Below, in pieces: positions 10,504 to 62,778 of a stretch of DNA of 64,000 nt. Every line of letters starts with the position of its first letter. The first letter of the stretch is position 1. The position numbers and the translations under genes were made by a program. The notes beneath the pieces are model-generated. The model saw nothing but the letters and a program-made list of their open reading frames with translations, did not search any database and was not told the origin of the DNA. Source of the stretch: an uncultured Gammaproteobacteria bacterium (lineage in GTDB: Bacteria > Patescibacteriota > Patescibacteriia > Magasanikbacterales > GWA2-37-8); assembly GCA_964641245.1 (NCBI GenBank), contig CAZXML010000002.1, positions 10,548 to 74,547 of the forward strand, in the 5' to 3' direction.

Positions 10504-10511
10504 AGGTTGAA

Positions 10512-16161: not shown

Positions 16162-16309
16162 ATGTTTTTTGTCATCCTGAACGTAGTGAAGGATATCTGT
16201 CTTAATCGCCGAACGGACAGAGATTCTTCGCTTTGCTCAGAATGACAGTTAAAAAAATTAGTTAAAAAAAAGCAGCTTCATTATTGAAGCGCTTTACATC
16301 AATAGAATA

Positions 16310-17798: not shown

Positions 17799-17877
17799 GT
17801 CATCCTGAATTTATTTCAGGATCTGCTTGTTATTTGTTATAGATGCTGAAACAAGTTCAGCATGACAGTGTTCCTTA
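17799..17877. repeat. family A element
   Basis: see 8659-8726. Confidence 0.85.
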
Positions 17878-19376: not shown

Positions 19377-19380
19377 AATT

Positions 19381-33180: not shown

Positions 33181-33418
33181 AGAACTGATACTGGGTTATT
33201 TCCGCCGCTGGTTTAACGTCGCTAAAAATTGACCGCTATTTTTGGCTGTCATCCTGAACGCAGTGAAGGATCTCTATCCGTCGTTTGTTCGTGAATTGGA
33301 CAGAGATTCTTCTCCGTCCTATGGCGGATCAGAATGACAATTGAGGGAACTCACAATGAGATTGTAGCGCAGATATTATATCAAAATTATTGACATTTGC
33401 CTAAAATACCGTTATCCT

Positions 33419-35143: not shown

Positions 35144-35602
35144 ATGTTTAGAACAAAATTACAAAGTAAAAAAAGTTATATTAACCGTTGCGCCGATTTT
35201 TTAAGAAATTCTTTTGGCACAGTTTGGTTTCTAGTTTTAAATGCCCTCATTTTTGCCCTGTGGCTAATCCTTAATTCTGGCTGGATTCCAAATTCTCCAA
35301 TTTTTGACCCATACCCATATGGATTTTTGACTATGGCAGTTTCCTTGGAAGCCATATTTCTTAGTGTTATTGTTCTCATCAGCCAAAACCGTGCCAATGA
35401 AATAGACGAACTGCGGGATGACCTGGATTTGGAAATTAATATTAAAGCCGAGAGTGAAATTACCAGAATAGTAAATATGCTGGATGAAATTCACGATCAT
35501 TTGGGCCTTCCCACAAAAGATGATGCGGAATTAAGAGGAATGAAGAAAAAAACAAATATCAACGACATGCAAGATGAACTGATGCGCATAGAAAAAAATT
35601 AA
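35144..35602 (+). CDS. DUF1003 family membrane protein
   Basis: FDPYPYxxL motif, two TM helices, C-terminal coiled-coil. Confidence 0.55.
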   Translation: MFRTKLQSKKSYINRCADFLRNSFGTVWFLVLNALIFALWLILNSGWIPNSPIFDPYPYGFLTMAVSLEAIFLSVIVLISQNRANEIDELRDDLDLEINIKAESEITRIVNMLDEIHDHLGLPTKDDAELRGMKKKTNINDMQDELMRIEKN

Positions 35603-35649: not shown

Positions 35650-36140
35650 GTGACATCCAAAAAATAAAACGAGGCAGATTTATCTGAATTTGCAATGTGC
35701 AATGTGCATTTTTTGCACATTGCTTTTTGCTTGGTAAACGACGATGTTATTTTTCAGTATTTTCTTGTTCATATACGAAATGAGTGAGTATATATGCTGA
35801 AAGCCTATACACGTTATTATAAATTTACAAAATTTCTTTATACTCGGAAAAGTTTTCCCGAACAATATTCTTCCATGTCGTCGTCTCATTACCACCACCG
35901 ATATCATTTTTATGATATACAAGCAAAACATGAACAATGCAAGTATCTTTATGTAAAGCGACAATACATCTATTGCCCGAACCGTGACGAGACTGCTGGG
36001 TACCGGCAATCTTGAATTCTGTTTTACAAATTTTTACCAACGCAGAATCAATAATAGTTTCTGCGGTATTTTTTAAAAAAGTATTTTATAAAGTGTCTTT
36101 CAGTAAATGGCTCGAAAATAACATCATACTTCTTCATAAT

Positions 36141-36815
36141 CTAAAATACTTCATCCGGATTTTCTTGGGTAAAAACATCGTATGACACGATATCGTTATC
36201 ACGAGCGAATAGATACGGAAATTGCTTGTGGGTAAAATCTACAATTTCAGAAGTTTTTTTACCTTTCCATTTTTTGTCGATATCATGAATCAACTTGGTT
36301 TCTTCGGTATTGAGCGCGGACAAACCAATTTTTGCGCCACTACGCGTCTCCGCAATGAGCATGGCTCCGTCTTTGGTTTGAGTGATATCTATTTCGCCAT
36401 TGTCAAACAAATCATCAATAATTCTAAAATACGCATCCGAAACCGGCCCATATGCCAATTTGCGATAGGACATACCACTCATACTTTTAAGGTGGTAATA
36501 AAACCACCCAAAGTCGGCAAAATACAATAATTTAGCAAGTTTTGTTTTTGTGATCTTGCCATCCAAACGCAAAAAAGCCAAGATCATTTGCTTGTATTTT
36601 TCATTGTTCGGCGCCACGCCATTCTTGAGCTCTTCCAAGGAAATGCCAAATATGTCGGCTAAAATAGCCGCTTCGGACAAACTAATGTCGCGCTTACCGT
36701 GCTCAAACGACACATATGAGGTACGGGGCATACTCATCTTTTGCGCAACTTCCGATTGTGATATTCCTTTTTGTATACGCAATTGTTTTATTGCGCTATA
36801 GTAGTTTTTACTCAT
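36141..36815 (-). CDS. HTH-XRE transcriptional regulator fused to Panacea (DUF4065/GepA-like) antitoxin-type domain
   Basis: N-term IKQLRIQKGISQSEVAQKMSM (XRE HTH); C-term KLAKLLYFADFGWFYYH...YRKLAYGPVSDAYF matches DUF4065 core. Confidence 0.65.
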   Translation of the reverse strand: MSKNYYSAIKQLRIQKGISQSEVAQKMSMPRTSYVSFEHGKRDISLSEAAILADIFGISLEELKNGVAPNNEKYKQMILAFLRLDGKITKTKLAKLLYFADFGWFYYHLKSMSGMSYRKLAYGPVSDAYFRIIDDLFDNGEIDITQTKDGAMLIAETRSGAKIGLSALNTEETKLIHDIDKKWKGKKTSEIVDFTHKQFPYLFARDNDIVSYDVFTQENPDEVF

Positions 36816-37031
36816 ATATTATGAAATATAATTGCACCTCGCTCGGAAAAGTTCGCGAGCGACCTTTTCTCTCACTTCACTACAATTATAAAGGTATTAT
36901 ACACCAATTATGTCTAAAAATCAACCACTGGGTGTGGATAAACTTGACACCATAAATACCTATGATAAAGTACCATGGATCGGCCTAGTCGAACCGTGAG
37001 CTACTTACCCGCCCCCCCCTAAACAATTCTT

Positions 37032-37223
37032 ATGAAGACCAACAAGATAATCATTAAAATGGCAAAAAACAAACAGCCATACGTCGTCGTCAAGGGCAAG
37101 AACAATGAAACAATTGCCATGACCGAAACCTACAAAAGCAAACAAGGCGCAAAAAAAGCTGCCGCTGCTTTAAAAAAAGTTGTAAAGAACGCTGTTGTTG
37201 TAGACAAAACTAAACAAGGTTAA
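37032..37223 (+). CDS. DUF1508 (YegP-like) domain protein
   Basis: PYVVVKGKNNETIAMTETYKSKQGAKKAAAALKKVVKNA matches YegP/UPF0339 repeat unit. Confidence 0.55.
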   Translation: MKTNKIIIKMAKNKQPYVVVKGKNNETIAMTETYKSKQGAKKAAAALKKVVKNAVVVDKTKQG

Positions 37224-37325
37224 CTTGAACAAAAGTTGCTGGTTTATAGAGATCTCGCGGAGAAAGAGGAATGATAGGAATTTTGCTATTCACCAACAGA
37301 GCTAGAAAGGCACGCCTCGTTCAAA

Positions 37326-37353
37326 AATAATCACCATTACGGTGATTATTTTT
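37326..37353. terminator. bidirectional intrinsic terminator
   Basis: aatcacc-attac-ggtgatt flanked by A-run and T-run, between convergent genes. Confidence 0.6.
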
Positions 37354-40065
37354 TTAAATTAACGGACTTGTATATTTTCTATACAACTCAAACAAAAAAA
37401 CCATTCTCTCCGCGTCCGATTTTAACACTTTTTTCCCATAAGCAGAGTCCACCGACCTGTCCAAAGCCTGATGTGCTTTTACAAGATCGGCTGGCATTGT
37501 CAGCGGATCATACAAATCAGCCAACGTGCTGTTTGGGTATTTTGTTCGCACATCCAACACCGTTTGCGCCGCTTCTTCGACCGTTTTCATTTTTTCAACA
37601 CTTGGCTTGTCCGGCCATGGAAAATTGTTATAAACAATATCTTTGGAATACCGAAAATCTGATTTCAACCGCCCACATACATGTCGCACCCAAGTCATAT
37701 GCATTTCGCTTTCCAGCACGCCGAAGTGATATGGTGTGGCGTTGGGAATTGCCATACACGTATCACTTATGATAAATTCATTACCAAAAAAACCCATGGG
37801 AATATATTTGCGATTTTCCGAAGAAACACGCGGAACAACAATAGCTGATTCGGGATTATTTCGGTCACGAAACAGCGAAGGTGTGCTTGCAAATTTCTGT
37901 GTCGAAGCAGCCTTGCTTGCTATGCGAAATTGTCTGACTTTTTCGATCCTTTCCATTACCGCTGGCATTTTCTGTAAATCATCTGGACTAGCATCAGTTA
38001 GCCACAAACACCACCGCTTTCCGCCATTTAAAAATTCTTTTGCACTAATAAGTGGCCTTATAAATTTTTCTGATTTTGGTTCTATTTGTAGTAATTCTAT
38101 TTTTTCTTTATCAGACAACAACAAATTTCCGCCATCCAGCGGCATATTGCCAAAATTCATTCTTGGAACATCACAGATCGTATTCTGTCTCGCTTCAATA
38201 ACAATATCCTCTGCCGGTAGCAAATACGGGTTGATATTTTTAACCACAATTTCGTGCGGCTCACCCTTTATGCTTTCATATTCGTATAATAACTTTTTTT
38301 CGGCATCATAATTAGCAAAACCAATAATTACGCAATAGACCGCCGCTTTTCCTCTTGCCTCATTGCTCCACCTGAAGGTCTGGTGTGCAAAATGAATTTT
38401 AATGCCGTATTTATTTAGAAGTTCGTTCCAAATAATACCAACCTGCTCACCTTGAGTAATAGAATTAGTAGAAACAAAAGCGCATTTAATTAGCGTATTT
38501 TGAATGTATTGCGCGGCTTTCCCATACCAACCAGAAACATAATCTAAAACCCCCACACCTTTGAGATTTCCGAAAACGGAAATAATATCCTTACGTTGCT
38601 CCTCAGCCATCAACTTAGAACCGATAAATGGCGGATTACCAAGAATATACGATAACTCGCTTTTTGGCAGAATTTCTTCCCAATTCTTCTGTAAAGCGTT
38701 ACCTATAAAAACAGTCGCGCCGTGAGAAAGCGGCAAATCAATAATATTTTTTCCAAAAGTCCGTCCGGCCAATTCATTCATTTGATGATCCATAAGCCAC
38801 ATAGCTGTTTCGGCAATGCGCGCGGGAAATTCCTCTATTTCAATGCCATAAAATTGTTCCGGTTTTATTTTTATCCATTCTTTAACTTCAAGCGGAAGCA
38901 TTACAGCCGTACCTTGCTGTCTTTTAAGAATTTCCAATTCTAATAAACGGAGTTCTCGAAATGCAATAATTAAAAAATTTCCACAACCACAAGCAGGGTC
39001 AAGAAATTTTAATTTTGCTATTTTTTCATGTAAATTTTTGAGCTTTTGTAAATTTTTTCCACAAGCATCTAATTCAAACGCCAACTCATCAAGAAAAAGT
39101 GGCTTGATAAGTTTTAAAATATTTTTTTCAGAAGTATAATGCGCGCCCAAGTGTCGCCTGGCATCTTTATCCATTACCGACTGAAACAACGACCCAAAAA
39201 TTGCCGGCGATATCGCTGTCCAATTAAAGGCGCAAGTATCCAGAAGGCTTTGGCGCATTTTCGAGGTAAAAGCAGGAACAGAGATATTTTCTGAAAAGAG
39301 TCCGCCGTTTACATACTCAAATTGGGACAACTCTTCATCCAAAGTATTCTGTCGTTTTTCCTTTGGCGTATTTAGAACTTGAAATAACATCCCAAGATGC
39401 ATGCCTAAATCATTTCCATCAACATTTGTTCGTGTTTCAATATAGCGCCGAAATTGATTTGGTGAAAAAATACGCGCATCCTCCGCAAACAGACAAAAAA
39501 GTATTCTAACAAGAAGCACATTTAATTCGTGTCCAAAATAACCAGCGGAAGCTGTTGCGTCATAAAGTTTCCCCATTAACTCGGCGGCCTTTATATTCAC
39601 TTCATCCTCTTCCTTGTATTCTTGCTTTTTATACCCGGCAATAAAACCAAAAAGGTGCACTTTTTTTACTAGGTCTTTAAGCTCAAATTCCACCTCTTCC
39701 CCTTCTTCGAGATCATAAAGTTTGATGCGGCCAAAATCAGAAACAAGGATATATTTTGGTAATTCTTTTTCGGTTAGACCGGGAAAATAATCCATCGCCT
39801 GATTGTATGCTTTGTTCAAATCCTTCCCAAGGGATTTATGCTCAACAATAAGCACACCTGGCCAAAACAAATCTATATACCCCCTGTTTCCACTCCTCTT
39901 TTCAACTTCATGTTCAAAACTCGCAAGCCGCCTTCTTGTTAACCCAAAGATATTAAAAAAACCATCCCAAAAAGTTTTTGCTTCGGCATCTTCGGATTTC
40001 TCGTTTTCCCATTCTTTAGAAAATTCAATAGCTCTGGTTTTAATTTCATTCCAAGAGAGTGGCAT
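37354..40065 (-). CDS. MmeI-family Type IIG restriction-modification enzyme (endonuclease + N6-adenine methyltransferase + specificity in one chain)
   Basis: 903 aa; N-terminus MPLSWNEIKTRAIEFSKEWENE...FEHEVEK...GYIDLFWPGVLIVEHKSLGKDLNKAYNQAMDYF resembles MmeI N-terminal nuclease domain; SAM motif and NPPF (GNPPFIGSK). Confidence 0.8.
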   Translation of the reverse strand: MPLSWNEIKTRAIEFSKEWENEKSEDAEAKTFWDGFFNIFGLTRRRLASFEHEVEKRSGNRGYIDLFWPGVLIVEHKSLGKDLNKAYNQAMDYFPGLTEKELPKYILVSDFGRIKLYDLEEGEEVEFELKDLVKKVHLFGFIAGYKKQEYKEEDEVNIKAAELMGKLYDATASAGYFGHELNVLLVRILFCLFAEDARIFSPNQFRRYIETRTNVDGNDLGMHLGMLFQVLNTPKEKRQNTLDEELSQFEYVNGGLFSENISVPAFTSKMRQSLLDTCAFNWTAISPAIFGSLFQSVMDKDARRHLGAHYTSEKNILKLIKPLFLDELAFELDACGKNLQKLKNLHEKIAKLKFLDPACGCGNFLIIAFRELRLLELEILKRQQGTAVMLPLEVKEWIKIKPEQFYGIEIEEFPARIAETAMWLMDHQMNELAGRTFGKNIIDLPLSHGATVFIGNALQKNWEEILPKSELSYILGNPPFIGSKLMAEEQRKDIISVFGNLKGVGVLDYVSGWYGKAAQYIQNTLIKCAFVSTNSITQGEQVGIIWNELLNKYGIKIHFAHQTFRWSNEARGKAAVYCVIIGFANYDAEKKLLYEYESIKGEPHEIVVKNINPYLLPAEDIVIEARQNTICDVPRMNFGNMPLDGGNLLLSDKEKIELLQIEPKSEKFIRPLISAKEFLNGGKRWCLWLTDASPDDLQKMPAVMERIEKVRQFRIASKAASTQKFASTPSLFRDRNNPESAIVVPRVSSENRKYIPMGFFGNEFIISDTCMAIPNATPYHFGVLESEMHMTWVRHVCGRLKSDFRYSKDIVYNNFPWPDKPSVEKMKTVEEAAQTVLDVRTKYPNSTLADLYDPLTMPADLVKAHQALDRSVDSAYGKKVLKSDAERMVFLFELYRKYTSPLI

Positions 40066-40184
40066 AGTCTTTATTAATCAAATCAATTTTAAATCATGAT
40101 TCTTTATTCTAAACGCTCTAAAAACTATCTTAATTTTACCCCCTCCACACCATTTTTACAAGCCAAAAAGTAAACCCCCAAACC

Positions 40185-40285
40185 AACCATCAAAAAACAC
40201 CCTTTCGGGTGTTTTTTTCGCGGCCTATTAAGTCTAAGCCCTCTCGGTCACTTGAACCTGTACAGCAATATAGCCTACAACAATG
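40185..40285. repeat. ~100-bp direct repeat copy A (contains terminator hairpin acaccctttcgggtgt)
   Basis: ~85% identical to 44505-44610; ends in degenerate copy of tRNA-Glu 3' flank (tagcctaca vs tagtccca). Confidence 0.7.
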
Positions 40286-40364
40286 ATACTTGGAACACTT
40301 TGGTCGAAGAACTTAAGTTATTAATCCATACCGTAAAAAAAACTAGTAACGCAGATAACTAAAT

Positions 40365-42656
40365 TCAAGAAACAAAAAGTTCATCAATACGCGAGACCTC
40401 ATTACTCTCTCTAAATTTATATTCTTCTTGTTGTATATCAGCTATCGCATCCTCCGCTCTAGCATTTTGTGAATTATCATCAGCAATTTCTTCTGCATTT
40501 ATTTCAAAAAGTTTTTCAAGCACTTTTAAATCATAGACACCAAATTCTTCGTTAAATTTTTCCGCATCATTATGAATATTATATACATGGTCTTTAATTT
40601 GTGAAGGTTTAAAAAGAGACCTTACTTCGCTCCCTTTAGAGGTAATTGCATCAATTCTAATTTGCCAGTAATAATCAAGGCTTTCCTCAACAACTTCTTG
40701 GCTGATCTCGTTAGAAATATATTGTTCGTAATCCTGGGAATAGGTTTCAAAAAGCTCTAGGACTCTTAATAATTCTTCCTCTTCATAAGCGTTTTGGAAC
40801 AACGTGTCAATAATATTACGCCAATTCTCTAGAATTGCATCTTTCAAAATACTAAAACCAGCAAATTCTTCGAGTAAATTAAGCAGGCTATGGGCTTGTG
40901 ATGAATTTACTTCATTTAATTTTATTTCTCTGAATATTTCAACAACATCTTTTTCGATTTTTGAAATATCAAAAAGCAGATAATAAAAATATATTATCTC
41001 AACTTCCTTTGATCCTCCTTTAATAATTTTAAGAGCACTCCGCTTTGCTTGTATTAATTGGTGCAAGCGATCAAGCTCGTTATCATCAAATACAATGCGT
41101 TTGCCAAATGATATGCCGAACCGTGTAGTTAATTGTTCGGTATAAATTGAAGATTCTAAAATTCTCCATTTCTCCCCAGGGTTTTTTAATAAGTAATTTA
41201 TAAAAAAATCTATAATTGATGGATTAAAAAAATCATAAGTGATAATTTGTCCATTATTTTTATGGATTATAAAACCCCTGGATAGCTCCTTTATTTTTAT
41301 ATGAAAAATACTGCTTTTTCTTTGAAAGCCATTTTTAATTTCATAACTAAGCCTAGACTCAAAAGCGTCCTGTAAATATTTTTCTTCAACAGTATCGAGG
41401 CTAAACAAAGTGCTGATTAAAAAACGTGCGTAATCATCAATTTGCTTCTCGTATGGATTTTCCCAAATTAGCGAGGGATCATCAAGGTTCTTCATTATAA
41501 AGGTCAGATACTCTGAATCCTTAACCCCTAAGAGTCGGAGTGGCTCAGTAATAAACTCAATTAAGCGCGGATTAAAATTTTTATGTTTTATTATTTTCCA
41601 GTAATTCTTTTTTTCAATTATTTTTTTAAGGTACCGCTCACTAAGTTTAGAAAAATATAAATGGTTATAAAGAATAAGCGCCCTATTCCATTCGCTGTAG
41701 TCATTTATATTAACCTCGTGTTTGGACAATTCGATTTTAGGATTTTGCAACTTAGAGAGATTCTGTGTTGCTTGGTTAAGGATGGTTGTTCTACTAGTGA
41801 GAATCAGCCTTTTCATCGGATCTTCTTTAACTCTTTCTATAAAATTAATAAGCGCAGAGTCGCTATTTTTTGGTTGTAAAATTTCAAAATAATTTGAACC
41901 TAAAAAATCATCGAAATAAAACACCTGCTTTTTACCCGGTTCCCATAATTTTTCGGCCTCACTAATTTTCTCATCCACACTAATCAATTGATATCCGCTG
42001 GCCAAGAGGTTGTAGGTAAGCATTCTTGCAAGAACAGTTTTACCGATACCTGGCTCCCCAATAATAACTAAAAAGCGTTTCTTATTTAAAATTCTCAATG
42101 CCTGATTAAATTTTTCATTCTGAACGTAGAGCGATATATTTTTTCTTATACTCTCAACGACAAATTCAGACCTTCCTTCAATACCATTATTGACTATCTT
42201 TTGTAAAATATTGACGCTAGAAAGCCAAAGTTTATGCCAGGACTTCTCAATTTTTGGAAATTTCCCCAATAAATTATTTAGATCATCTTTACCGTAAATA
42301 TCTGCTGGAAAACGGATGAATGGTTTAAAAATATTTAAAATAGTATCTTTATCACTTGGGCTCAATTCTACACTAGTCGTTAGAATATAACGGCTAGGAC
42401 TTAATTTTATTACTTTGGGCAACTCTTCCTTTCTCAATTTATTAATAAGCTGTTTCAGACCACTCTTCCGCCAATGTTTTGCTTGGATAATAATTTTATC
42501 TTTCGATTGAACAGGAGATATGTACCTCAAATCAATGCCTTGATCTCGGCCACGCTTGAAACTTTCAAGGGTTATTTTATGCTCAGCTTGAAGCAAGTCC
42601 CTGCTAAGATTTTCGAATTCCTTATCATTTAATGTTTCAAAACCATAATTGGGCAT
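40365..42656 (-). CDS. Mrr-like PD-(D/E)xK nuclease / STAND-type P-loop NTPase / C-terminal helical-repeat protein (Avs-like architecture)
   Basis: N-term FENLSRDLLQ...DQGIDLRY...IIIQAKHW (Mrr_cat E, D, QxK); Walker A IIGEPGIGKT; Walker B VFYFDDFLG; LILTSRTT sensor-like motif; ~400-aa helical C-terminus. Confidence 0.6.
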   Translation of the reverse strand: MPNYGFETLNDKEFENLSRDLLQAEHKITLESFKRGRDQGIDLRYISPVQSKDKIIIQAKHWRKSGLKQLINKLRKEELPKVIKLSPSRYILTTSVELSPSDKDTILNIFKPFIRFPADIYGKDDLNNLLGKFPKIEKSWHKLWLSSVNILQKIVNNGIEGRSEFVVESIRKNISLYVQNEKFNQALRILNKKRFLVIIGEPGIGKTVLARMLTYNLLASGYQLISVDEKISEAEKLWEPGKKQVFYFDDFLGSNYFEILQPKNSDSALINFIERVKEDPMKRLILTSRTTILNQATQNLSKLQNPKIELSKHEVNINDYSEWNRALILYNHLYFSKLSERYLKKIIEKKNYWKIIKHKNFNPRLIEFITEPLRLLGVKDSEYLTFIMKNLDDPSLIWENPYEKQIDDYARFLISTLFSLDTVEEKYLQDAFESRLSYEIKNGFQRKSSIFHIKIKELSRGFIIHKNNGQIITYDFFNPSIIDFFINYLLKNPGEKWRILESSIYTEQLTTRFGISFGKRIVFDDNELDRLHQLIQAKRSALKIIKGGSKEVEIIYFYYLLFDISKIEKDVVEIFREIKLNEVNSSQAHSLLNLLEEFAGFSILKDAILENWRNIIDTLFQNAYEEEELLRVLELFETYSQDYEQYISNEISQEVVEESLDYYWQIRIDAITSKGSEVRSLFKPSQIKDHVYNIHNDAEKFNEEFGVYDLKVLEKLFEINAEEIADDNSQNARAEDAIADIQQEEYKFRESNEVSRIDELFVS

Positions 42657-42669
42657 ATGCGCAAATAAA

Positions 42670-44472
42670 TTAATCTAGTTTGTCAATAAGTTTTTCCAAT
42701 TCAACAATATCTTTCCATTGATAACAGTTACTTGGAGGATCTACGTTAAAATCAAGCAACGAATCAAGCAAACTCTCAATAACCAAAAACTTTTCCTCGT
42801 CTTCCATAATTGTAACCAGCGCGGTGTAAGGCTTCTCTTTTTTAAATGCTTCTCCAAAATAGGCTTCTTCAAAATTTGGAACTGAAGCTAGCAAACGAAC
42901 ATTTGCAGGAAACTTATGCGCGAGCGTTATATCTAATATGTCTTTATTTTTTGACCAGGCCGGGTTAGCTATAAATGACCTGTCTTTTTTTTCGACTTTC
43001 GGCCTATCACTATCATGTAAAATAGAGTAAGGCGCGCCGAAATGATTAAGAATTTTTGCAACCGAAACTATAGTGGCTTTACCGCGAGCCCTGATAATAT
43101 GAATATTGCTATACTTTTCTGGATTTTTTGCAATTATATATTTAAAAACGGTGTACTCAGTATCACCCTCAACAACTACAACTTTCCCGCCAAAAAAGAA
43201 TTCTGCCACATAAGGATCCCAGATATTCATTAATTTTAATAATTTCTTATCATCTTGTTCCAATCCAACTTTTTCTGGCCTAAAAATCGTTGTTCCTTTT
43301 ATGTCACCAGAAGAATTTTTTTCGACCCTAATAATGGTGGTATTGTCTCTTGAAACATCAATAAAATTAGGCGAGTGAGTTGTAATCATGACCTGCCAGT
43401 TTGAGCTTGGCAGTCCATATAATAAATTACATGCATGGCGTATTGCATCGGGGTGCAAACAAATTTCAGGCTCATCGAGCAAAAGAACATGCGATCTGGT
43501 TACCTCTCCATCCTTGTCTTTCTTTGTTTTTGATTCAGAGATAATTTGCAATGCCGTCCATAATAATGTCCTACGAGCCCCGCTACCTTGCGCCTCAATT
43601 GTTCCAAGATACCCACCAGTTGGACCCATCAAAAGTTGTGGGCTGTTTTTAAAAAGTGATATGGCTTTATCTGGATCGTCTTCTGGTTTAGCATTAAACC
43701 GGACTTGATAATTTGGGAAAACTTTTCCGATCAAATTTGTAAGCTCATCTTGAACTTTATCTATTTCAGTTTGTGACTCTAGTACAATTTTTTTTTGGAG
43801 ACTTTTAACTTGGCTCAACAGAATCCCATAATCTGATCCTTCCTCTTCCTTTTTCAAATCCTTTATTCTATTAGTAAGCACTGAGGATAAAAGTTTTGTT
43901 ATTTCTTCTGCCTGATCTTCGGGTAAATCAAATGCCCCAATCCTATGCGGTTGAGGTCTGCGGGAATTCGCCACACCGGGCGCACCCCACGGAACTTTCT
44001 CATCCCAACCACCATTTACATTAAGCCCCTGACGTTTAGGGTCTCCTGGCTGTGCCCAACACCATCGCTCAATAACAATTTTTTCTTTGCCAATTTCGTG
44101 TATCCATTCTTGTCCAGGAAAATTATTATATACTATTGTATGTAAGACGATTTCAGGCAAATTATTTTCATCGATCCTACCATTAGGAAAATCCTGAATC
44201 ATCAATTTACCGTCTGCCGATCCCTGCGACATAACTATTTCATACGCACGAAGAATGGAACTTTTCCCTACATTATTTGGTCCTACCAAAACAACAATAT
44301 CATCTAGCTCAATCTCAACGGGGTTAGCACCTATACAACGAAAATTTTTGATACTTAGTTTTTGTAAGCGTTGACGACCTTCAGCTACAAGCTCTAAAGC
44401 CAATTTTCTTTCTATAGGCACAGGCAATTTTGGCATAAATTTAATGCATTTATTAAACTTAAAGCTTATCAT
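42670..44472 (-). CDS. OLD-family/GajA-like nuclease: ABC-type ATPase + C-terminal Toprim
   Basis: Walker A GPNNVGKSS, Walker B/D-loop LLLDEPEICLHPD, H-loop ITTHSP, Toprim VVVVEGDTEYTVF and ILHDSD. Confidence 0.75.
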   Translation of the reverse strand: MISFKFNKCIKFMPKLPVPIERKLALELVAEGRQRLQKLSIKNFRCIGANPVEIELDDIVVLVGPNNVGKSSILRAYEIVMSQGSADGKLMIQDFPNGRIDENNLPEIVLHTIVYNNFPGQEWIHEIGKEKIVIERWCWAQPGDPKRQGLNVNGGWDEKVPWGAPGVANSRRPQPHRIGAFDLPEDQAEEITKLLSSVLTNRIKDLKKEEEGSDYGILLSQVKSLQKKIVLESQTEIDKVQDELTNLIGKVFPNYQVRFNAKPEDDPDKAISLFKNSPQLLMGPTGGYLGTIEAQGSGARRTLLWTALQIISESKTKKDKDGEVTRSHVLLLDEPEICLHPDAIRHACNLLYGLPSSNWQVMITTHSPNFIDVSRDNTTIIRVEKNSSGDIKGTTIFRPEKVGLEQDDKKLLKLMNIWDPYVAEFFFGGKVVVVEGDTEYTVFKYIIAKNPEKYSNIHIIRARGKATIVSVAKILNHFGAPYSILHDSDRPKVEKKDRSFIANPAWSKNKDILDITLAHKFPANVRLLASVPNFEEAYFGEAFKKEKPYTALVTIMEDEEKFLVIESLLDSLLDFNVDPPSNCYQWKDIVELEKLIDKLD

Positions 44473-44504
44473 TTGACTAATACAAAGTCAAAACAAGCAA
44501 AGCA

Positions 44505-44610
44505 CCGCCCAAACCAAACACCAAAAAACACCCTTTCGGATGTCTTTTGCGTGATCTGCCAAGTCCAACCCCTCTCGGTCACTTGAACCTGTACAGCAGT
44601 GTAGTCCCAA
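44505..44610. repeat. ~100-bp direct repeat copy B abutting tRNA-Glu 3' end
   Basis: cccaaaccaaacaccaaaaaacaccctttcggatgtcttttgcg...ccctctcggtcacttgaacctgtacagcag shared with copy A. Confidence 0.7.
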
Positions 44611-44673
44611 CGGGAATTGAACCCGTATTTTCGCCTTGAAAGGGCAATGTCCTAACCATTAGACGATGAGACC
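44602..44673 (-). tRNA. tRNA-Glu (anticodon TTC)
   Basis: cloverleaf by hand: acceptor GGTCTCA/TGGGACT (2 G-U), D-arm TCGTCTAATGGTTAGGACA, anticodon arm TTGCC-CTTTCAA-GGCGA, T-arm ACGGG-TTCAATT-CCCGT; closely resembles bacterial tRNA-Glu. Confidence 0.8.
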
Positions 44674-45585: not shown

Positions 45586-46683
45586 ATGTTAATTCTCGGC
45601 ATTGAATCTTCCTGCGACGATACTTCTGTGGCCTTACTAGATATTTCCGAAAAAGGCGCGGCTATTTTATTTGAAAAAACCGCTTCGCAAATTGAAATCC
45701 ATAAAAAATACGGCGGTGTGGTGCCGGAAATTGCCGGCCGGATGCACGCGGAAAAAATTGTGCCGCTTATAGACGCGGCGCTAAATGGAAGAATGATTAA
45801 GAAATTAGGAAATAAAGAAATTAAACCAGATGTGATTGCCGTAACCGCCGGACCGGGATTAATTACCGGGCTTTTAGTAGGGGTAGAAGCGGCGCGCGCT
45901 TTATCGTATGCATGGGATATTCCACTAATAAGAACAAACCACATAGAAGGACACGTCTATTCTGTTGTCATTGCGAGCCACAGCGAAGCAATCCCAAATA
46001 CTGATAGTTCTGACAATGGGATTGCCGCGTCGCTTAAAGCTCCTCGCAATGACATACAGTTCCCGGCCTTATGCCTAATCGTCAGCGGCGGGCATACGGA
46101 ATTAATTTTGATGAAAAACCACGGAAAGTATAAATTACTGGGCGCGACCAAAGACGACGCGGCGGGAGAATGTTTTGATAAGGCGGCAAAATTACTGGGG
46201 CTTCCCTATCCGGGCGGACCGCAAATTTCTAAACTGTCCGAAACCGGAAACCCGGCCGCGATAAAATTCCCCCGGCCGATGATGGCCGATGAAAATTATT
46301 TATTTAGTTTCGCCGGATTAAAAACTTCCGCTTTGTATTGGTTGCGCGACAATAAATTGAAAAATATTAACGACTTTTGCGCCAGTTTTGAACAGGCAAT
46401 TGTAGATGTTTTGGTGGCCAAAACTATTAAAGCCTCCATTCAATACAAACCAAAAACTATTATTTTAGCCGGCGGGGTTAGCGCCAACAAAAAACTTCGC
46501 CAAACATTAGGCGAAGTCATAGGCGCTAAATTTCCCGAAGTGAATTTTATGGCCCCGCAGACAAAGTATTCCATGGACAACGCCGCCATGATTGCCATGG
46601 CCGGATATTATCACGCCTTAAAAAAAGATTTTACTTCCTGGAAAAAAATCCAAGCCGACCCGAACTGGGAACTTGCTGAATAG
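45586..46683 (+). CDS. tsaD: tRNA N6-adenosine threonylcarbamoyltransferase TsaD, with in-frame palindromic-element insertion
   Basis: LGIESSCDDTSVAL, HxEGH metal site (NHIEGH), GGVSAN; ~30-aa insert VIASHSEAIPNTDSSDNGIAASLKAPRNDI from repeat 45966-46054. Confidence 0.9.
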   Translation: MLILGIESSCDDTSVALLDISEKGAAILFEKTASQIEIHKKYGGVVPEIAGRMHAEKIVPLIDAALNGRMIKKLGNKEIKPDVIAVTAGPGLITGLLVGVEAARALSYAWDIPLIRTNHIEGHVYSVVIASHSEAIPNTDSSDNGIAASLKAPRNDIQFPALCLIVSGGHTELILMKNHGKYKLLGATKDDAAGECFDKAAKLLGLPYPGGPQISKLSETGNPAAIKFPRPMMADENYLFSFAGLKTSALYWLRDNKLKNINDFCASFEQAIVDVLVAKTIKASIQYKPKTIILAGGVSANKKLRQTLGEVIGAKFPEVNFMAPQTKYSMDNAAMIAMAGYYHALKKDFTSWKKIQADPNWELAE

Positions 46684-50301: not shown

Positions 50302-50449
50302 AGTAGTATTTTTCGCTGTCATCCTGAACGCAGTGAAGGATCTCTGTCTCAATTACTGACCGGACAGAGATTCTTCGCTTTGCTCAGAATGACAGTTTGT
50401 GAGCAACTTAACTCGCCTATCGTACCTGAAAACACAAACTTAATCAAAC

Positions 50450-56826: not shown

Positions 56827-56828
56827 GT

Positions 56829-56870
56829 AACATCGAAATAACGAAATACCACGAAAACTACGAAATACCA
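56829..56870. repeat. left inverted repeat flanking GxxExxY gene (aacatcgaaataacgaaataccacgaaaactacgaaatacc)
   Basis: reverse-complement partner at 57296-57335. Confidence 0.7.
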
Positions 56871-56872
56871 AA

Positions 56873-57286
56873 ATGACAACAATTAATCATTTATTGAGGC
56901 GAAAAGATTTAATTTATCCAGACTTAAGTTTTAGGGTTGTTGGTGTTTTAATCGATGTATACAAACAACTTGGACCTGGCCATCAAGAAAAGTACTACCA
57001 AAATGCTGTTTCTCTTGGTCTGGCAAGAGCTGGGTTAAACTTTGAGGAACAAAAACATGTGCCTCTCACATTTCACGGCACAAATATTGGCCGATACTTT
57101 TTAGACTTTCTTATTGAAGACAAGTTGGTTCTTGAACTTAAAAAGGGAGAATTCATACCCAAAGAAACTTTTGACCAAGTCAAAGGATACCTGACTGCTT
57201 TAAACTTACAATTAGCAATTATTGCAAACTTTACACTACACGGAGTATTCTATAAAAGAATTGTTGCAACACCAAACCCAAAGTAA
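56873..57286 (+). CDS. GxxExxY family protein (PD-(D/E)xK-like)
   Basis: 137 aa; conserved GxxExxY-family pattern incl. DFLIEDKLVLELK; flanked by ~35-bp inverted repeats. Confidence 0.6.
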   Translation: MTTINHLLRRKDLIYPDLSFRVVGVLIDVYKQLGPGHQEKYYQNAVSLGLARAGLNFEEQKHVPLTFHGTNIGRYFLDFLIEDKLVLELKKGEFIPKETFDQVKGYLTALNLQLAIIANFTLHGVFYKRIVATPNPK

Positions 57287-57295
57287 CACTTGTTT

Positions 57296-57335
57296 TTCGC
57301 GGTTTTCGCGGTATTTCGTAATTTCGATGTTATAT
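57296..57335. repeat. right inverted repeat flanking GxxExxY gene
   Basis: ggtatttcgtaatttcgatgtt = revcomp of aacatcgaaattacgaaatacc; preceded by tandem tttcgcgg x2. Confidence 0.7.
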
Positions 57336-58218: not shown

Positions 58219-58680
58219 ATGTTGTCGGTCAAACCTTTCAGACAATCCGCCGGACTATGCGGACCGGCCAGCCTGAAAATGGTGCTGGAATATTTTGGTG
58301 TAAAAAAATCAGAAAAAGAATTGGCGAAATTATCTAATGCTCATCCACATAATGGAACGACTGCGCAAAATTTGGTAAAGGCGGCCAAAAAACTTGGCTT
58401 CAAAGCCAACTACAAAGATTTTTCTTCGTTAAAAGAAATAAAAAAATATTTGGATAAGAAAATACCAGTCATTGTGGACTGGTTTTCTCATGATGACGGA
58501 CATTATTCGGTGGTGGCCGGTATGGATACAAAATTTATCCACCTGCAAGATCCGGAGTTGGGAAAAATAAACAAAATAGATTTGATTACTTTCCAAAGAG
58601 TTTGGTTTGATTTTGAAGGAGAAAAATTAAATAAAAAACAAGATATCTTCATTCGCCGGCTAATCGTCATCCAGTCTTAA
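58219..58680 (+). CDS. C39-like (papain-fold) cysteine peptidase domain protein
   Basis: QSAGLCGPASLKMVLEYFG (Gln/Cys of C39) and downstream His in DGHYSVVAGMD. Confidence 0.55.
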   Translation: MLSVKPFRQSAGLCGPASLKMVLEYFGVKKSEKELAKLSNAHPHNGTTAQNLVKAAKKLGFKANYKDFSSLKEIKKYLDKKIPVIVDWFSHDDGHYSVVAGMDTKFIHLQDPELGKINKIDLITFQRVWFDFEGEKLNKKQDIFIRRLIVIQS

Positions 58681-58689
58681 CTAGCGAGT

Positions 58690-58811
58690 TCGCGTCTTTG
58701 CTTCCGGACCAAACAATTTATCAAACACCGAAAGCTTGCGCACTGTGCTATGCTCATTTTTTAGAAAAACTTCTCCGGATTCTTTGCCGATTTTTTGTAC
58801 TCATCCGCCAA
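58690..58811 (-). pseudogene. 5'-truncated remnant of a paralog of the 62449-62778 gene
   Basis: ~80% nt identity to 62449-62570; would encode last ~42 codons (…GKESGEVFLKNEHSTVRKLSVFDKLFGPEAKTRTR*) with no start. Confidence 0.6.
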
Positions 58812-58929: not shown

Positions 58930-60291
58930 TTAGTTTATTTTCTTTTTTAACGGTATACGCACTACACTATTCTTTGGATCTTTCGGCGGCTCGTACACAC
59001 CGGGCACGTCGCATCGCACGAACATTTTTGATTCACCGCCTCTCACATTTGCCCATTCTTCGTAGGGCGGCCTAAGCGGGATCTTTTTCTGTACATCTTT
59101 CCCGTCCATATCTTTTCGTTCGCCTTTGACCCATAAGGCGTCCCATTCGTCGGCAGTTTTATCACTGCGGCGACTTTGTTTGAATAAATATTCTGCCAAA
59201 CGGCGCGCAAAAGTTGGGTCCTCTTTTAATTTTTCTGCCACTTGTTTTGCTGTTGATTCCGGTATTATGGTATCAACAGCCAAATATTGTCCTCCCCGAT
59301 TAGAATAATCTTTATATGCATATTCCCGTTCATTTCCCGAGTCTTGCGCCAGATAAACAAACCTATAGGCCATTTCATCACTTCCGTTTGCTACCACTTC
59401 CTTTTGAGCCGCGGTTCTTTTTGTAACTGTGGTTTTTGCTTCATCCGGTTTAAAAAGATGTTTCTTTACAACTTCCGTATGATATTCAACAATAACATGG
59501 GGGGCCAAAATTACAGCTTCGTTAACGTCCGCCTGCTTCATGTAATAACTTTGGTCGCTTCTAGCTGTATCTCTTGGCTGTCTAAAAGCGCCCGCAAGTG
59601 AATCCATGGCAAAATTTCTTGGATGATCGTTGCGTCCATATCTGCGGATACCGCGTTTTTGCTGGATTATATCATTAAATCCAGCATTCCCATCCGGTGC
59701 AAAACCATAAGGAAAACTTGTACTTACTCCAGTTCCACCTTGTTGTGCTATGGCAGCCATCAATATTTTTTCACGCGCCTCGGTCTCCTTGGCTTTATCC
59801 GCTTCGGCGTGATGAGAGACAACCACCTCTTTCGCTTGCGCCGCCCGCTCCTGTTTCCATTTTTCAAAATCTTTTCGCTTTCTGAACTTTCCTTCCTCAT
59901 TTTGTTGTAAAAAATTTTCCAATTCTTCGAATGCCTTGATCTCTGCTTGAACAACGTCAAAATCTTCTGCGGAGTAGTCCGCTAGGTTTACATTATGATA
60001 AACATCACTAACATTTTTTCTTAATGTTTCCAAATCACCCTTCGAAAGTTGAACTTCTGTTTTTAACAAATCAATCCTTGTTCGCGCTTGATCTAACATT
60101 TTTTTCCATGTTTTCATTCCAGCCGGCGAATTTTCCTTTATAGCCACATTATGCAAGTCCGTTACCCTATCAATTTCAAATTGAGCAAACTGCAACAATT
60201 CATCAGCTGAAGCCGTTGCCTCTTTTGTCTCTGCTGTAGAAAATTTAAAATCCTTTCCCTTTTCTCCGCTATCGTCATTGTCTGTGGACAT
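58930..60291 (-). CDS. hypothetical protein
   Basis: 453-aa ORF, K/E-rich, no recognised motif. Confidence 0.45.
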   Translation of the reverse strand: MSTDNDDSGEKGKDFKFSTAETKEATASADELLQFAQFEIDRVTDLHNVAIKENSPAGMKTWKKMLDQARTRIDLLKTEVQLSKGDLETLRKNVSDVYHNVNLADYSAEDFDVVQAEIKAFEELENFLQQNEEGKFRKRKDFEKWKQERAAQAKEVVVSHHAEADKAKETEAREKILMAAIAQQGGTGVSTSFPYGFAPDGNAGFNDIIQQKRGIRRYGRNDHPRNFAMDSLAGAFRQPRDTARSDQSYYMKQADVNEAVILAPHVIVEYHTEVVKKHLFKPDEAKTTVTKRTAAQKEVVANGSDEMAYRFVYLAQDSGNEREYAYKDYSNRGGQYLAVDTIIPESTAKQVAEKLKEDPTFARRLAEYLFKQSRRSDKTADEWDALWVKGERKDMDGKDVQKKIPLRPPYEEWANVRGGESKMFVRCDVPGVYEPPKDPKNSVVRIPLKKKIN

Positions 60292-60316
60292 ATAAAAAAA
60301 TTATCAAAAATGTAAT

Positions 60317-61102
60317 TTATTTTTCAAGTTTCTTTAACGCCTCCATGTCGGCTTTTTCAGCAATACTTTCTTTCTCTTCTTGTTCAAAATGACGAACATA
60401 ATCACGCGCTGAATTTACCGAGTAATAAATTCCCATGCCAAACTCGTGGCAAACTGCTTCATAATGCAGCACATCATTTCCATGCTTGGTAAGAAATTCA
60501 ATTTTGAAAGAATCGTTTGGGCGCAAGTCTTCTCCGTCAAAGGAATAAAGAATTTTCCCATCCGGATGGGTTTGTAATATTTTTAAAGCATCACTTTCAA
60601 TACTTAAGCTTCCTCCATAAATTTTTTGTGTTTCCAAAAGCTGTTCTATCTTTCGCTCATTTTCTAAACGTACCAGAAAGTGTTGCTCCATTGCTGTCTC
60701 AACATCTTTACCCTGCTGTTTTTGTCTTGCTAGCTCTTGCATTTCGCGCCGTAAGGCCGCGCGTTTATCATATAATTCTTTTAACTTCCCCACTTCTTCA
60801 AGCGAACCGAATGTTTTCTCTAAATATGAACCCATATCAATTTGACTGCCAACGGGATATTTTTTTCTAAACTCCGCAAGACGCTTATCCAAATCTTGTT
60901 TATGTTCTCTCAAATACTCCGCTTCTTCAGCGGGCAAGGTAGCCAGATACGCATCCCATGATTCGTTATTTATTTTTTCATTATTTTCTTTTCCCTCAAT
61001 TACTGACCCATCTGACATAACTGTAATTGCATTGCGCCTTAACAAAACATATGGCTTGTTTTCTTGGTCTGGAGCTCCAGCGCCTCGTTCCGGGTTGCTC
61101 AT
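60317..61102 (-). CDS. hypothetical protein
   Basis: 261-aa ORF, no recognised motif. Confidence 0.45.
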   Translation of the reverse strand: MSNPERGAGAPDQENKPYVLLRRNAITVMSDGSVIEGKENNEKINNESWDAYLATLPAEEAEYLREHKQDLDKRLAEFRKKYPVGSQIDMGSYLEKTFGSLEEVGKLKELYDKRAALRREMQELARQKQQGKDVETAMEQHFLVRLENERKIEQLLETQKIYGGSLSIESDALKILQTHPDGKILYSFDGEDLRPNDSFKIEFLTKHGNDVLHYEAVCHEFGMGIYYSVNSARDYVRHFEQEEKESIAEKADMEALKKLEK

Positions 61103-61142
61103 AAAATATTTGTATTAAATAAATTAATTTTATTATTTTTTA

Positions 61143-61640
61143 TTAAGACAGCTTGTTAATAAGACCCAAATCTTCCATTTTTTTTCGCCATTTACTGATT
61201 TCTTTTTCTCCTAACCAGCCGTATATATTCCCGATGCCTTGTAACTCTTCCGTCACTTTATCCATAGCGCCAGTATTGCCAGCTTCATCGGCATCTTCAA
61301 AACTTTTATTCAAAGACTGTACTTTTTCGGCAAGACTTAACATATCAACCAATTTGCGGGGTTTACCTTGGCGCAGTTCTGCAAGCGCCTGGTTGCAAAG
61401 AGCTAGAAACATTTCTTTTTCATTATCATACTTCTTTTGTTCTTCTACGATAAATTGATAAGTTTCATCCCGTCTTTGTTTGGCTTCCTCACCCACCGGT
61501 GTTGGTTGATTTTTCGGGCCCGTCATGAGCAACAAACCTTCACCTACCATACCATCGTATTTTTTTGCCTGTCCGACTAATTTTTTAAAGAAAGAATCGA
61601 GTTCGCTGGCGATACCTTCTGGATTTTTTAATTTATCCAT
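61143..61640 (-). CDS. hypothetical protein
   Basis: 165-aa ORF from ATG 61640 (GTG at 61646 alternative). Confidence 0.4.
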   Translation of the reverse strand: MDKLKNPEGIASELDSFFKKLVGQAKKYDGMVGEGLLLMTGPKNQPTPVGEEAKQRRDETYQFIVEEQKKYDNEKEMFLALCNQALAELRQGKPRKLVDMLSLAEKVQSLNKSFEDADEAGNTGAMDKVTEELQGIGNIYGWLGEKEISKWRKKMEDLGLINKLS

Positions 61641-61657
61641 AAGCACATTTACATATC

Positions 61658-62239
61658 TTAATACCTCGTCTTTTTAAACATTCCTATCTTTTTTGCGTCT
61701 TCAACTTTCTTAACAGCCTCATTTTCCCCTATCTGCCTTAACAATTCCAAAAAATCCTCGTCTTTCCATTTTTCATACATTTCGTCGCCTCTTAACCCGG
61801 TGGCAGTACCTCCCCAAGCCATTTCTGCCAACTCCTCCACGGTCGTCGGGTATTCCTGTGGATTTGAGATTTTCTGTTTCTTAAAAATTTCTAATTGTTG
61901 ATTAAAATTACCTGGTAATTCTTTCTTAACTTCAAATTCTGAGGACGACTGTTTGGTCGGCTCTTCCGCTAGCACCTCTTCTATTCCCGATAGTCTTGCT
62001 GGATTAAATCTAAAAGGACGTCCGTAAACTTTTGTTAAACGCACCGCCTCATCTCTTAATTTATTTTCAAATTTTGCCTTTTCATGCAGAACACCCATAG
62101 CATTCTTCTCTCGTGTTTTTTTGAACAATCCTGGCGCATTTTTTATAGCGTCAGATAAAGCTTCTTCGCGTGATTTACTAAATTCTTGGCAGGCGCCAGT
62201 TATATGTTTCCCACCACATATTTTACAAAGATTTTCCAT
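61658..62239 (-). CDS. hypothetical protein with N-terminal CxxC...HxxxC knuckle
   Basis: ATG 62239 (MENLCKICGGKHITGAC...), upstream extension starts with GTG. Confidence 0.4.
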   Translation of the reverse strand: MENLCKICGGKHITGACQEFSKSREEALSDAIKNAPGLFKKTREKNAMGVLHEKAKFENKLRDEAVRLTKVYGRPFRFNPARLSGIEEVLAEEPTKQSSSEFEVKKELPGNFNQQLEIFKKQKISNPQEYPTTVEELAEMAWGGTATGLRGDEMYEKWKDEDFLELLRQIGENEAVKKVEDAKKIGMFKKTRY

Positions 62240-62448
62240 AAAATTGGAGGAAAATTTATTAACACTTTTAATTTTACCCCCCCCCAACACCTATTAGCAA
62301 GAAACTTATCCCCAGTATCACCCATAAATACCTTGTTACATCTTGAAAAGTGCTGAAACATGTGTTGCAATTTGCATTTTAAAGTAACAAAAAAAATAAT
62401 ACGACTACAAAAATCAATAGCCACAAAAGAAATTATTTTGATGCCTAA

Positions 62449-62778
62449 CTACCGATTCCGCGTCTTTGCGTCTGGCCCGAATAATTTATCAAACACCGAA
62501 AGCTTGCGCACGGTGTTTTTTTCATTTTTAAGAAAGACCTCACCAGATTCTTTGCCGATTTTTTGCACGACGTATGCAAAGGCGCGCAAGTCATCACCCA
62601 ATTTTGCCTTAAAAACCATCTTCGGTTTTAATTCTGTTTGTTTTATACGATCAGAAATCTGCAGGCGTTTATTGTAGGCAACATCTTTTTCGTCTTCTTG
62701 ATTTTGTCGTCCAATACTTTCTCGTTTACCCAACCAACGAGAATCAACATTAACTGGTGTGGCGGATTTTTTTGACAT
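62449..62778 (-). CDS. hypothetical small basic protein (has a truncated paralog at 58690-58811)
   Basis: 109-aa ORF. Confidence 0.4.
   Translation of the reverse strand: MSKKSATPVNVDSRWLGKRESIGRQNQEDEKDVAYNKRLQISDRIKQTELKPKMVFKAKLGDDLRAFAYVVQKIGKESGEVFLKNEKNTVRKLSVFDKLFGPDAKTRNR

Follow-up and report, generated by a model that had tools for sequence, protein, structure and literature searches.

A repeat-bracketed OLD and Mrr-nSTAND3 gene pair beside tRNA-Glu in a Magasanikbacteria-like lineage: a candidate mobile defence cassette

The DNA considered here is a 64-kb stretch (64,000 nt, below called the window) of contig CAZXML010000002.1, in which two putative defence genes next to a tRNA-Glu gene are bracketed by two copies of a direct repeat that we call D. 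Copy A (40177-40273) and copy B (44508-44604) are each 97 nt long, align without gaps at 85% identity (BLAST E = 9e-25) and were the only members of their family returned from the window by a repeat search. Beyond these 97 nt, a weaker similarity extends in a MAFFT alignment as far as a common ACAAGC at 40158-40163 and 44493-44498. A preliminary description of this DNA had already reported direct repeats of about 85% identity, and pairwise alignment confirms them, the earlier coordinates (40185-40285 and 44505-44610) being a few bases off. The junctions were recovered at 99.9-100% identity from assemblies of two SRA runs and one Joint Genome Institute (JGI) metagenome: that of copy A in contigs of SRR6155503 and SRR6155509, that of copy B in SRR6155509, and the two together on a single JGI contig. 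As they are reproduced in independent assemblies, the structure is not a product of mis-assembly.

The insertion site is anchored by tRNA-Glu(UUC) (44601-44673, minus strand; ARAGORN, Rfam 65 bits). Copy B shares only the final 3-4 nt of this tRNA and otherwise lies downstream of it. Read on the minus strand, it runs from these nucleotides into a 28-nt block, GCTGTACAGGTTCAAGTGACCGAGAGGG (44570-44597, a few nucleotides from the tRNA end), then into a first hairpin and finally into a bidirectional terminator-like hairpin (44523-44548; ACATCC-GAAA-GGGTGT with A/T runs). The terminator of copy B now serves tRNA-Glu, and the earlier placement of this copy, with its terminator hairpin, at the 3' end of the tRNA stands. 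Copy A, the distal copy, has the same architecture on the minus strand 3' of the Mrr-nSTAND3 gene, with the identical block at 40239-40266 and a terminator-like hairpin at 40192-40217 (ACACCC-GAAA-GGGTGT with A/T runs), about 150 nt past the stop codon of that gene. Each copy folds into an imperfect hairpin 1 followed by an 11-12 bp hairpin with a GAAA loop between A and U runs, with stabilities of z = -4.6 for copy B and -3.2 for copy A. Directly past copy A, a promoter-like site (TTGTAA-17-TAAAAT, 40133-40161, minus strand) faces the MmeI gene; it is homologous to the promoter preceding a rhuM-like gene in two related loci, L086 and L084.

Two open reading frames (ORFs) lie between the copies, both on the minus strand, and they are the only candidate defence genes there, as had been described. 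The tRNA-proximal one encodes an OLD-family ATPase-TOPRIM nuclease (42670-44472, the JGI gene call placing its start at 44436; Pfam AAA_15 and OLD-like_TOPRIM, PADLOC Old at 5e-94). The other encodes a Mrr-like nuclease fused to an nSTAND3 NTPase, below also STAND (40365-42656; assigned by Pfam, and PADLOC candidate PDC-S73 at 2e-191). Neither a recombinase nor a transfer gene was found between copies A and B. The cargo is of foreign composition, with a GC content of 0.29-0.37 over the pair against 0.42-0.46 in the flanks.

The pair forms part of a larger composite island (about 35.65-44.6 kb), as one of its modules, and the interval from the DUF1003 gene to tRNA-Glu is defence-like throughout. 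Between the copy-A promoter and a rhuM-like remnant lies a second block (35825-40065, minus strand) that comprises genes for an MmeI type IIG restriction-modification (R-M) enzyme (37354-40065, minus), DUF1508 (37032-37223, plus), a helix-turn-helix (HTH)-SocA/Panacea protein (36141-36815, minus) and orf71 (35825-36040, minus). The remnant itself (35686-35772, minus) consists of the first 17 codons of a rhuM-like gene (MNKKILKNNIVVYQAKS) fused to a later fragment, and the DUF1003 gene (35144-35602, plus) forms the left border of the variable region. To the left of it follow housekeeping genes (IF-2, TruB, RNase Y, a sigma factor, a U32 peptidase and ferredoxin); on the other side, the order tRNA-Glu (minus strand), orf143, tRNA-Met, tsaD, dnaE is kept in relatives. 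The organism is a groundwater bacterium with a very small genome; TsaD, DnaE and their neighbours place it in the Patescibacteria, near Candidatus Magasanikbacteria, with 77% TsaD identity to the best reference loci. In more distant relatives the interval between DUF1003 and tRNA-Glu is filled by a two-component system, TauE or adenylosuccinate lyase.

Occurrence and divergence of D

An exact 23-mer of the D core was scanned over a metagenome collection and matched six contigs, in each of which D is tied to tRNA-Glu. The repeat stands directly 3' of the tRNA in L086, L087, L088 and, as the first of two copies, L084; it lies 170 nt past the tRNA in L083 and 2.8 kb past it in L085, and the second L084 copy is found 9.7 kb downstream of the first. 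In L083 and L085 the last 13-14 nt of tRNA-Glu recur exactly in front of the distal D (p<=0.001). None of 80 related reference loci contained D, only their tRNA aligning. Within the DNA covered, two copies in the window and six metagenome contigs all linked to tRNA-Glu contradict a generic dispersed terminator, the outcome that the preliminary description had named as fatal to its proposal.

Two of these contigs, from related lineages of other species than that of the window, present the site in other states. L086 resembles an empty site, reading tRNA-Glu, D, a sigma-70-like promoter and a rhuM-like gene. L084 reads (partial) tRNA-Glu, copy D1, 2.9 kb of unknown ORFs, a degenerate copy D3, a 6.6-kb segment, copy D2, promoter and rhuM, the 6.6-kb segment carrying unknown ORFs, a protein with a DnaA_C/sigma-r4 HTH, a C5 methyltransferase and a PBECR2-type toxin. 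The 9.7 kb of cargo bracketed by its D copies is unrelated to OLD and STAND, and L084 is a tandem array with unrelated cargo. Comparison with relatives has in this way supplied both an unoccupied state and D copies around a different cargo, as expected from the insertion proposed earlier.

The rhuM-like gene that directly follows D is intact in L086 and L084, and the window holds only its fossil, for which the comparison with L086 gives 35722-35772. Set against the L086 state, the window must therefore have received at least two insertions. Judged from the gene order, one would have placed OLD and STAND between a new and the old D copy, and the other the MmeI/DUF1508/SocA block between the old promoter and rhuM. 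Exact-protein look-ups of TsaD, MmeI, STAND, orf143 and DUF1003 returned the identical arrangement in three samples. Separately, L083 has a remnant of the rhuM-like gene that arose by a different deletion, and L085 (38-3040) contains tRNA-Glu(CTC), a convergent DUF1003 gene (76% identical to that of the window), an HTH-phosphoribosyltransferase gene, orf137 and a tRNA-Glu(UUC) 3' fragment with D, in an order that is not collinear with the window.

Nine D copies from seven contigs were aligned. The 28-nt block next to the tRNA end is invariant across them: the mean pairwise difference is 0.9% inside the block and 17% at the other D positions, and the chance of such an invariant run, crudely estimated, is ~1e-7. 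Copy B is 94-95% identical to the D copies of other organisms and 83.5% identical to copy A, which is the outlier among all known copies (78-85%). Because copy B is nearer to foreign D copies than to copy A, the two did not arise by a recent in-situ duplication. Between the window and L087, D is ~94% identical, compared with 73% for the TsaD protein, 32% for orf143 and ~65% for the region upstream of the tRNA; L003-L005, equally related, have no D. Since D has been kept at ~94% while neighbouring genes diverged, it travels or is exchanged, and its pattern of divergence looks like that of exchanged or element-borne DNA, unlike a neutrally drifting spacer. In two independent cargos, the stretch over which the proximal copy matches the ancestral flank ends within ~8 nt of the same point, in the promoter -35 region. 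The 28-nt block is a candidate recombinase half-site, for which its size and position would be suitable.

The gene pair and serine recombinases in other Patescibacteria

Tracing STAND homologues to their contigs placed OLD and Mrr-nSTAND3 side by side in four independent contexts (window 40365-44472; L089 4191-8253; L097 5386-10007; L099 5575-9620), with STAND proteins 49-57% identical and in layouts that vary between OLD then STAND, STAND then OLD, and divergent. PADLOC lists each gene as a single-gene system; their repeated adjacency suggests a functional two-gene unit, and the point for annotation is that the two appear to move as a pair. L089 is a Magasanikbacteria metagenome-assembled genome in which STAND is 57% identical and the pair adjoins a diversity-generating retroelement, with neither a tRNA nor a convincing flanking repeat at the locus. 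In L097/L098 the pair stands beside a large serine recombinase (LSR), a TrwB-like protein and ArdC. The Patescibacteria contig L099 is a textbook tRNA-integrating island, in which tRNA-Val and a terminator are followed by a tyrosine integrase, an Xis-like HTH protein, STAND (49% identical) and OLD, then SNase, Ea47, an M78 peptidase, DUF4411 and a 32-nt, 91% identical copy of the tRNA from T-arm to 3' end.

Used as a probe, the L097 recombinase led to homologous LSRs that immediately adjoin tRNA-Glu in two Magasanikbacteria loci, L018 and L011, and to a family of 153 homologues (E<=1e-30) annotated from several Patescibacterial groups. Members include L018 (5792-7441), L100 (10001-11536), L101 (10001-11542), L011 (17-373) and the whole of the circular L102. 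In all four integrated members examined (4/4), the LSR gene touches or runs into the tRNA-Glu 3' end; in L100 and L101 the LSR ORF overlaps tRNA-Glu(UUC) by ~39 nt on the opposite strand, and at least six family proteins terminate in an antisense-translated tRNA T-arm, such as VAPTRIELV. The conserved module consists of a ~380-428 aa protein, a 57-59 aa protein (g57) and the LSR, and is joined to variable R-M/ATPase cargo: an N6-methyltransferase (MTase)/S-subunit with DUF4268 and PDDEXK, a type I R-M system with NYN, AAA_15/21 with DUF4276, or an N6_N4 MTase with ResIII and DUF5655.

L102 is the circular attP form of such an element (10.8 kb), as indicated by a 30-nt terminal overlap and a gene that reads through the origin without a stop. 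Comparison of its attP with attL and attR of L018 puts the crossover at ...CTAC|, the 3' terminus of tRNA-Glu itself. These elements bring a new terminator to the tRNA and displace the native downstream region with its terminator to the far end, and copies B and A of the window are arranged in the same topology as the att sites of L018/L102. No distal copy of the tRNA 3' end was found in L018, L100 or L101, because the LSR crossover lies at the tRNA terminus. We also considered the promoter region past D as a relic of the 3' end of an LSR gene and rejected this, the shared motifs being non-collinear and of low complexity; a 19/20 match between L100 and L086 (E = 7e-5) is suggestive only.

Origin of the bracket

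The reading that we favour, with a probability slightly above one half (roughly 0.55), is that the repeats are attL-/attR-like junctions of a small mobile OLD and Mrr-nSTAND3 cassette, site-specifically inserted at the 3' terminus of tRNA-Glu. It draws on the exclusive linkage of D to tRNA-Glu, on the empty and differently occupied sites of relatives and on the foreign composition of the cargo; in related bacteria, recombinase-bearing elements sit at the same tRNA-Glu terminus or carry the same gene pair. The incoming DNA would have carried its own version of the region downstream of the tRNA (copy B), which became the tRNA terminator, and site-specific recombination exactly at the tRNA terminus would have moved what formerly followed the tRNA (copy A, together with its terminator and promoter) some 4.3 kb away. 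There, the displaced copy may end the STAND transcript and drive the next gene. The cassette, having no recombinase of its own, would be a cis-mobilizable or fossil module, and serial insertions between tRNA-Glu and DUF1003 would have built the composite defence island, with OLD and STAND the most recent layer, the MmeI/SocA block older and the decayed rhuM gene older still. We infer that a recombinase rather than RecA made the junction in the window, and the same holds for the identity of that recombinase. The preliminary description had offered either an att-like duplication or a recombination hotspot that swaps cargo; its proposal is supported, and the two options are not mutually exclusive.

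Several results weigh against this reading. As had been noted from the start, no integrase is in evidence: a Pfam scan of 45 of the 46 window ORFs of >=120 aa matched no integrase or recombinase, and neither an integrase nor a transposase nor a remnant of one was seen in the window or in any D-bearing contig examined. Searches by tblastn were equally negative, both with the tyrosine integrase of L099 and the serine recombinase of L097 against the window and with the L102 LSR, g57 and split-gene proteins against the window and L084. Searching IMG/VR for the D core gave 0 matches, and comparison of D in distant mode with phage records and with plasmid records gave none either. Neither a circular nor an attP version of a D-type element came to light, and the protein look-ups described above did not find an empty-site strain of the source organism. 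A repeat of ~100 nt and 85% identity is far longer than a serine recombinase needs, and such an enzyme by itself does not account for it; the LSR elements examined carry no D and have only ~4 nt in common between attL and attR, and the equivalent arm of the LSR family is not conserved in sequence. The repeat requires either a diverged D flank as the incoming tRNA-side arm, comparable to tRNA-restoring attP arms, or RecA-dependent integration of the Campbell type.

The segment immediately upstream of copy A in the sense of the tRNA (40274-40305, minus strand, ending ...GTAGGCTA) adds to these difficulties. According to the preliminary description, copy A supplies the terminator of the Mrr-STAND gene and ends in a degenerate copy of the tRNA 3' flank. 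The former agrees with the hairpin past the stop codon. The latter is weak and has indirect support only, a shuffle test of the 45 nt upstream of copy A against the tRNA 3' end giving p = 0.5-0.99. The segment resembles only the tRNA-3' fragment of L085 (p~0.01), and its match to the P half-site of the LSR elements (...GGGGTGTAAATTCTCAATACAGTAGTCTAC) is marginal (19/32, ungapped and in the register of the junction, p~0.04). It could possibly be a decayed element-side (P) half-site or a tRNA-3'-like fragment.

Homologous recombination could have produced the bracket without any site-specific enzyme, if OLD-STAND with D-like DNA entered the cell, for example by natural transformation, and RecA acted through a single (Campbell) or unequal crossover in D as the anchor of homology. 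We regard this as unlikely, if deserving of serious weight. It suits the lack of a recombinase in the window and in D-bearing contigs, the length of the repeat (97-116 nt, with a perfectly identical stretch of 28-29 nt) and the presence in the window of ComEC (Competence and DUF4131 domains, 17811-19391), which bears on DNA uptake; the extra partial block copies upstream of D2 in L084 could be recombination debris. A stretch of 28-29 nt is close to the minimum often quoted for RecA-dependent exchange in E. coli. A circular donor would be needed, however, and RecA alone leaves unaccounted for the exact tRNA 3' end that starts the distal copies of L083 and L085, the coincidence of the repeat boundary with the tRNA terminus at which bona fide serine-recombinase elements insert, the end of homology within ~8 nt in two unrelated cargos, and the invariance of the block across organisms. 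Local duplication, whether of ancestral tandem tRNA-Glu and D units or of the flank in situ, followed by decay of the second tRNA and a later, unrelated insertion of the defence genes, seems improbable. Tandem partial duplications of tRNA-Glu do occur in other Patescibacteria (L042 and L045), but copy B is closer to foreign D copies than to copy A, no significant tRNA remnant lies upstream of copy A, L084 has the same bracket around a different cargo, and an extra, unexplained insertion step would be required.

It is a shade less probable again that D is mainly a functional RNA, a small RNA made from the 3' trailer of tRNA-Glu (hairpin 1 and terminator), of which both copies were kept because they are useful, the bracket being secondary. 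Such a role would explain the invariant block, the conservation of D far beyond that of neighbouring genes and the stable two-hairpin fold. In the consensus fold, which again has two hairpins, compensatory changes were seen in 0/27 predicted pairs, and copy A disrupts several pairs of hairpin 1. D had no Rfam match at the gathering threshold in the window and eight loci, nor at E<=5 in L042 and L083, where only tRNAs matched; the matches in the window are its two tRNAs. The absence of D from the equally related L003-L005 is hard to square with a core function, and the tRNA-end fragments and tandem arrays are left unaccounted for. That D is a generic dispersed terminator or a repetitive extragenic palindromic (REP)-like repeat which flanks these genes by chance is hardly credible: short palindromic repeats do abound in the window (families D1-D5 and D14), but D is unrelated to them and occurs exactly twice in the 64 kb, and its metagenome copies occupy only positions linked to tRNA-Glu.

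A further idea, more doubtful than RecA acting alone and less so than local duplication, would make the 28-nt block a self-regenerating landing pad at which recombinase-free cassettes are stacked or exchanged in trans, the X elements described below being related miniatures or RNA/DNA cofactors. If so, each cassette would bring a copy of the block, so that the tRNA-proximal junction stays a competent target; the recombinase would be encoded elsewhere, for instance by the tRNA-Glu-specific serine recombinase family, and the whole would amount to a cassette-exchange system with integron-like logic for the reduced genomes of Patescibacteria.

A site-specifically inserted cassette would resemble several known kinds of element. 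Cis-mobilizable elements (CIMEs) have lost their integration and transfer genes and retain attL and attR (PMC5704250), and the same review covers CIMEs and tandem accretion in, for example, the ICESt1-related islands of Streptococcus (Pavlovic 2004, Bellanger 2011). Like them, the window has a module between attL-/attR-like direct repeats on the 3' side of the target gene, free of integration or transfer genes of its own, and the relative L084 has tandem arrays with three or more att copies. Here, by contrast, the repeats are ~100 nt long, only 85% alike and, instead of lying within the target gene, have nearly all of their length downstream of the tRNA, and no cognate integrase-bearing partner of the D family was found; the likeness is one of structure, read from sequence. 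Structurally the window has what defines a CIME, and it lacks the integrase of its own that marks a complete island.

The ssrA islands of Dehalococcoides lie in tandem behind repeats of 20 bp that duplicate the 3' end of ssrA, with insertion in the T-loop; some of them are without an integration module, and the serine recombinase used, DsiB (~540 aa), overlaps both attL and the gene targeted (PMC3146451). In both cases a bacterium with a small genome has a variable region on the downstream side of a tRNA-like gene present in single copy, with repeat-bounded islands in tandem; also shared is an LSR ORF running into the target gene on the opposite strand, seen at tRNA-Glu in L018, L100 and L101. 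In contrast, the Patescibacterial LSR crossover is at the extreme 3' terminus, with ~4 nt shared by attL and attR, and in the window the repeat measures 97 nt and no recombinase is present. Among the defence hotspots of E. coli, 18 of 41 are in tRNA loci (PMC10121019). The window is like such hotspots and tRNA islands in its defence cargo of foreign composition at a tRNA 3' end and in an occupancy that varies among relatives, and L099 is a complete example with a homologous STAND and OLD pair, at tRNA-Val instead of tRNA-Glu; it differs in having no integrase and a repeat without a substantial part of the tRNA. Classical tRNA-integrating islands and prophages reportedly use tyrosine integrases. 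The SCCmec and pseudo-SCC elements (SCC, staphylococcal cassette chromosome) with CcrAB are analogous to serine-recombinase islands.

Taken in this light, what the window holds appears to be a CIME-like cassette, flanked by att sites and lacking an integrase, within a defence hotspot that has been reused serially in a Magasanikbacteria-like lineage, and the locus would be a familiar kind of insertion scar that calls for no new mechanism. Its interest lies in the fact that mobile elements and defence islands of the candidate phyla radiation (Patescibacteria) are poorly charted: here, Patescibacterial defence genes occupy a tRNA-Glu site that seems to have been used again and again, in layers whose order can be proposed. 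Tracing the locus also exposed a widespread family of serine recombinases at the tRNA-Glu terminus, with varied R-M/ATPase cargo and one circular form.

Other repeats and inserted units

Past several Patescibacterial tRNAs we noticed a recurrent layout, here called X, in which a terminator hairpin follows the tRNA and the T-loop/T-stem of that tRNA recurs in inverted orientation at +37 to +64; next come a GC-rich segment of 100-150 nt, the final 17-20 nt of the tRNA repeated exactly from the T-loop onwards, and a second terminator. X loci are L034 (9039-9212), L041 (8182-8346), L042 (109-333), L048 (5185-5369), L055 (9613-9831), L076 (3526-3749), L080 (about 4870-5513), L083 (3561-3744) and, at a tRNA-Leu, L068 (4795-4975). 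The inverted copy is exact over 10-14 nt, except in L068, where it spans 26 nt and has two mismatches and one gap; it co-varies with the tRNA at each locus, and p<=0.0035 was reached in 7 of 12 loci. L080 has a modular GC-rich segment of ~640 nt. A copy of the tRNA 3' end is present at 10 of 61 tRNA-Glu loci and 3 of 51 other tRNAs. X had no Rfam match even at E<=5 (L042 and L083), and its motif had one chance match in IMG/VR, inside a coding region. It may have arisen from integrative elements by deletion, or may be a miniature element or a structured RNA. In L081 an X-like segment stands next to a distal repeat, with 2.6 kb of cargo. Tandem partial tRNA-Glu arrays were seen in L045 (6926-7206), with units of ~104 nt that start in the anticodon stem, and L042 (1-333) contains a repeated unit of terminator, X and 3' copy.

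The window is also dense in palindromic repeats. A dispersed family (GCGACGCGGCAATCCCATTG...) has a copy at 45984-46055, in frame inside tsaD (45586-46683), where it adds ~21 aa (SHSEAIPNTDSSDNGIAASL) relative to L003 and L004; in the tsaD of L006 a repeat of a different type has been inserted independently in the same loop. This resembles the Rickettsia palindromic elements found in coding genes. Other copies of the family lie at 6110-6157, 10435-10504 and 21734-21824, the last inside the LeuRS ORF (19381-22521), which adjoins the ComEC gene and has a HAD_2-like segment at residues 392-547. Further families of ~35-80 nt (TGTCATCCTGAAC...GGATCT and GACAGAGATTCTTCGC...CAGAATGACA) have 10-12 copies each and are mostly intergenic; examples are found at 6467-6508, 8656-8691, 16170-16250, 33237-33278 and 50317-50397.

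A second pair of direct repeats (58678-58800 and 62446-62568; ~123 nt, 85% identical) brackets four ORFs without a Pfam match (58930-62290). It was considered as an att-like analogue of D and set aside, the repeat reading on the minus strand as coding sequence for the C terminus of a small ORF (...KIGKESGEVFLKNE...SVFDKLFGP...), and it is probably a paralogous gene fragment. Lastly, an ORF for a 137-aa protein of the PD-(D/E)XK_3 (GxxExxY) type (56873-57286) lies between inverted repeats of 41 nt (56828-56868 and 57292-57332) that are 88% complementary, and from this arrangement the segment 56828-57332 looks like a small, self-contained inserted unit.

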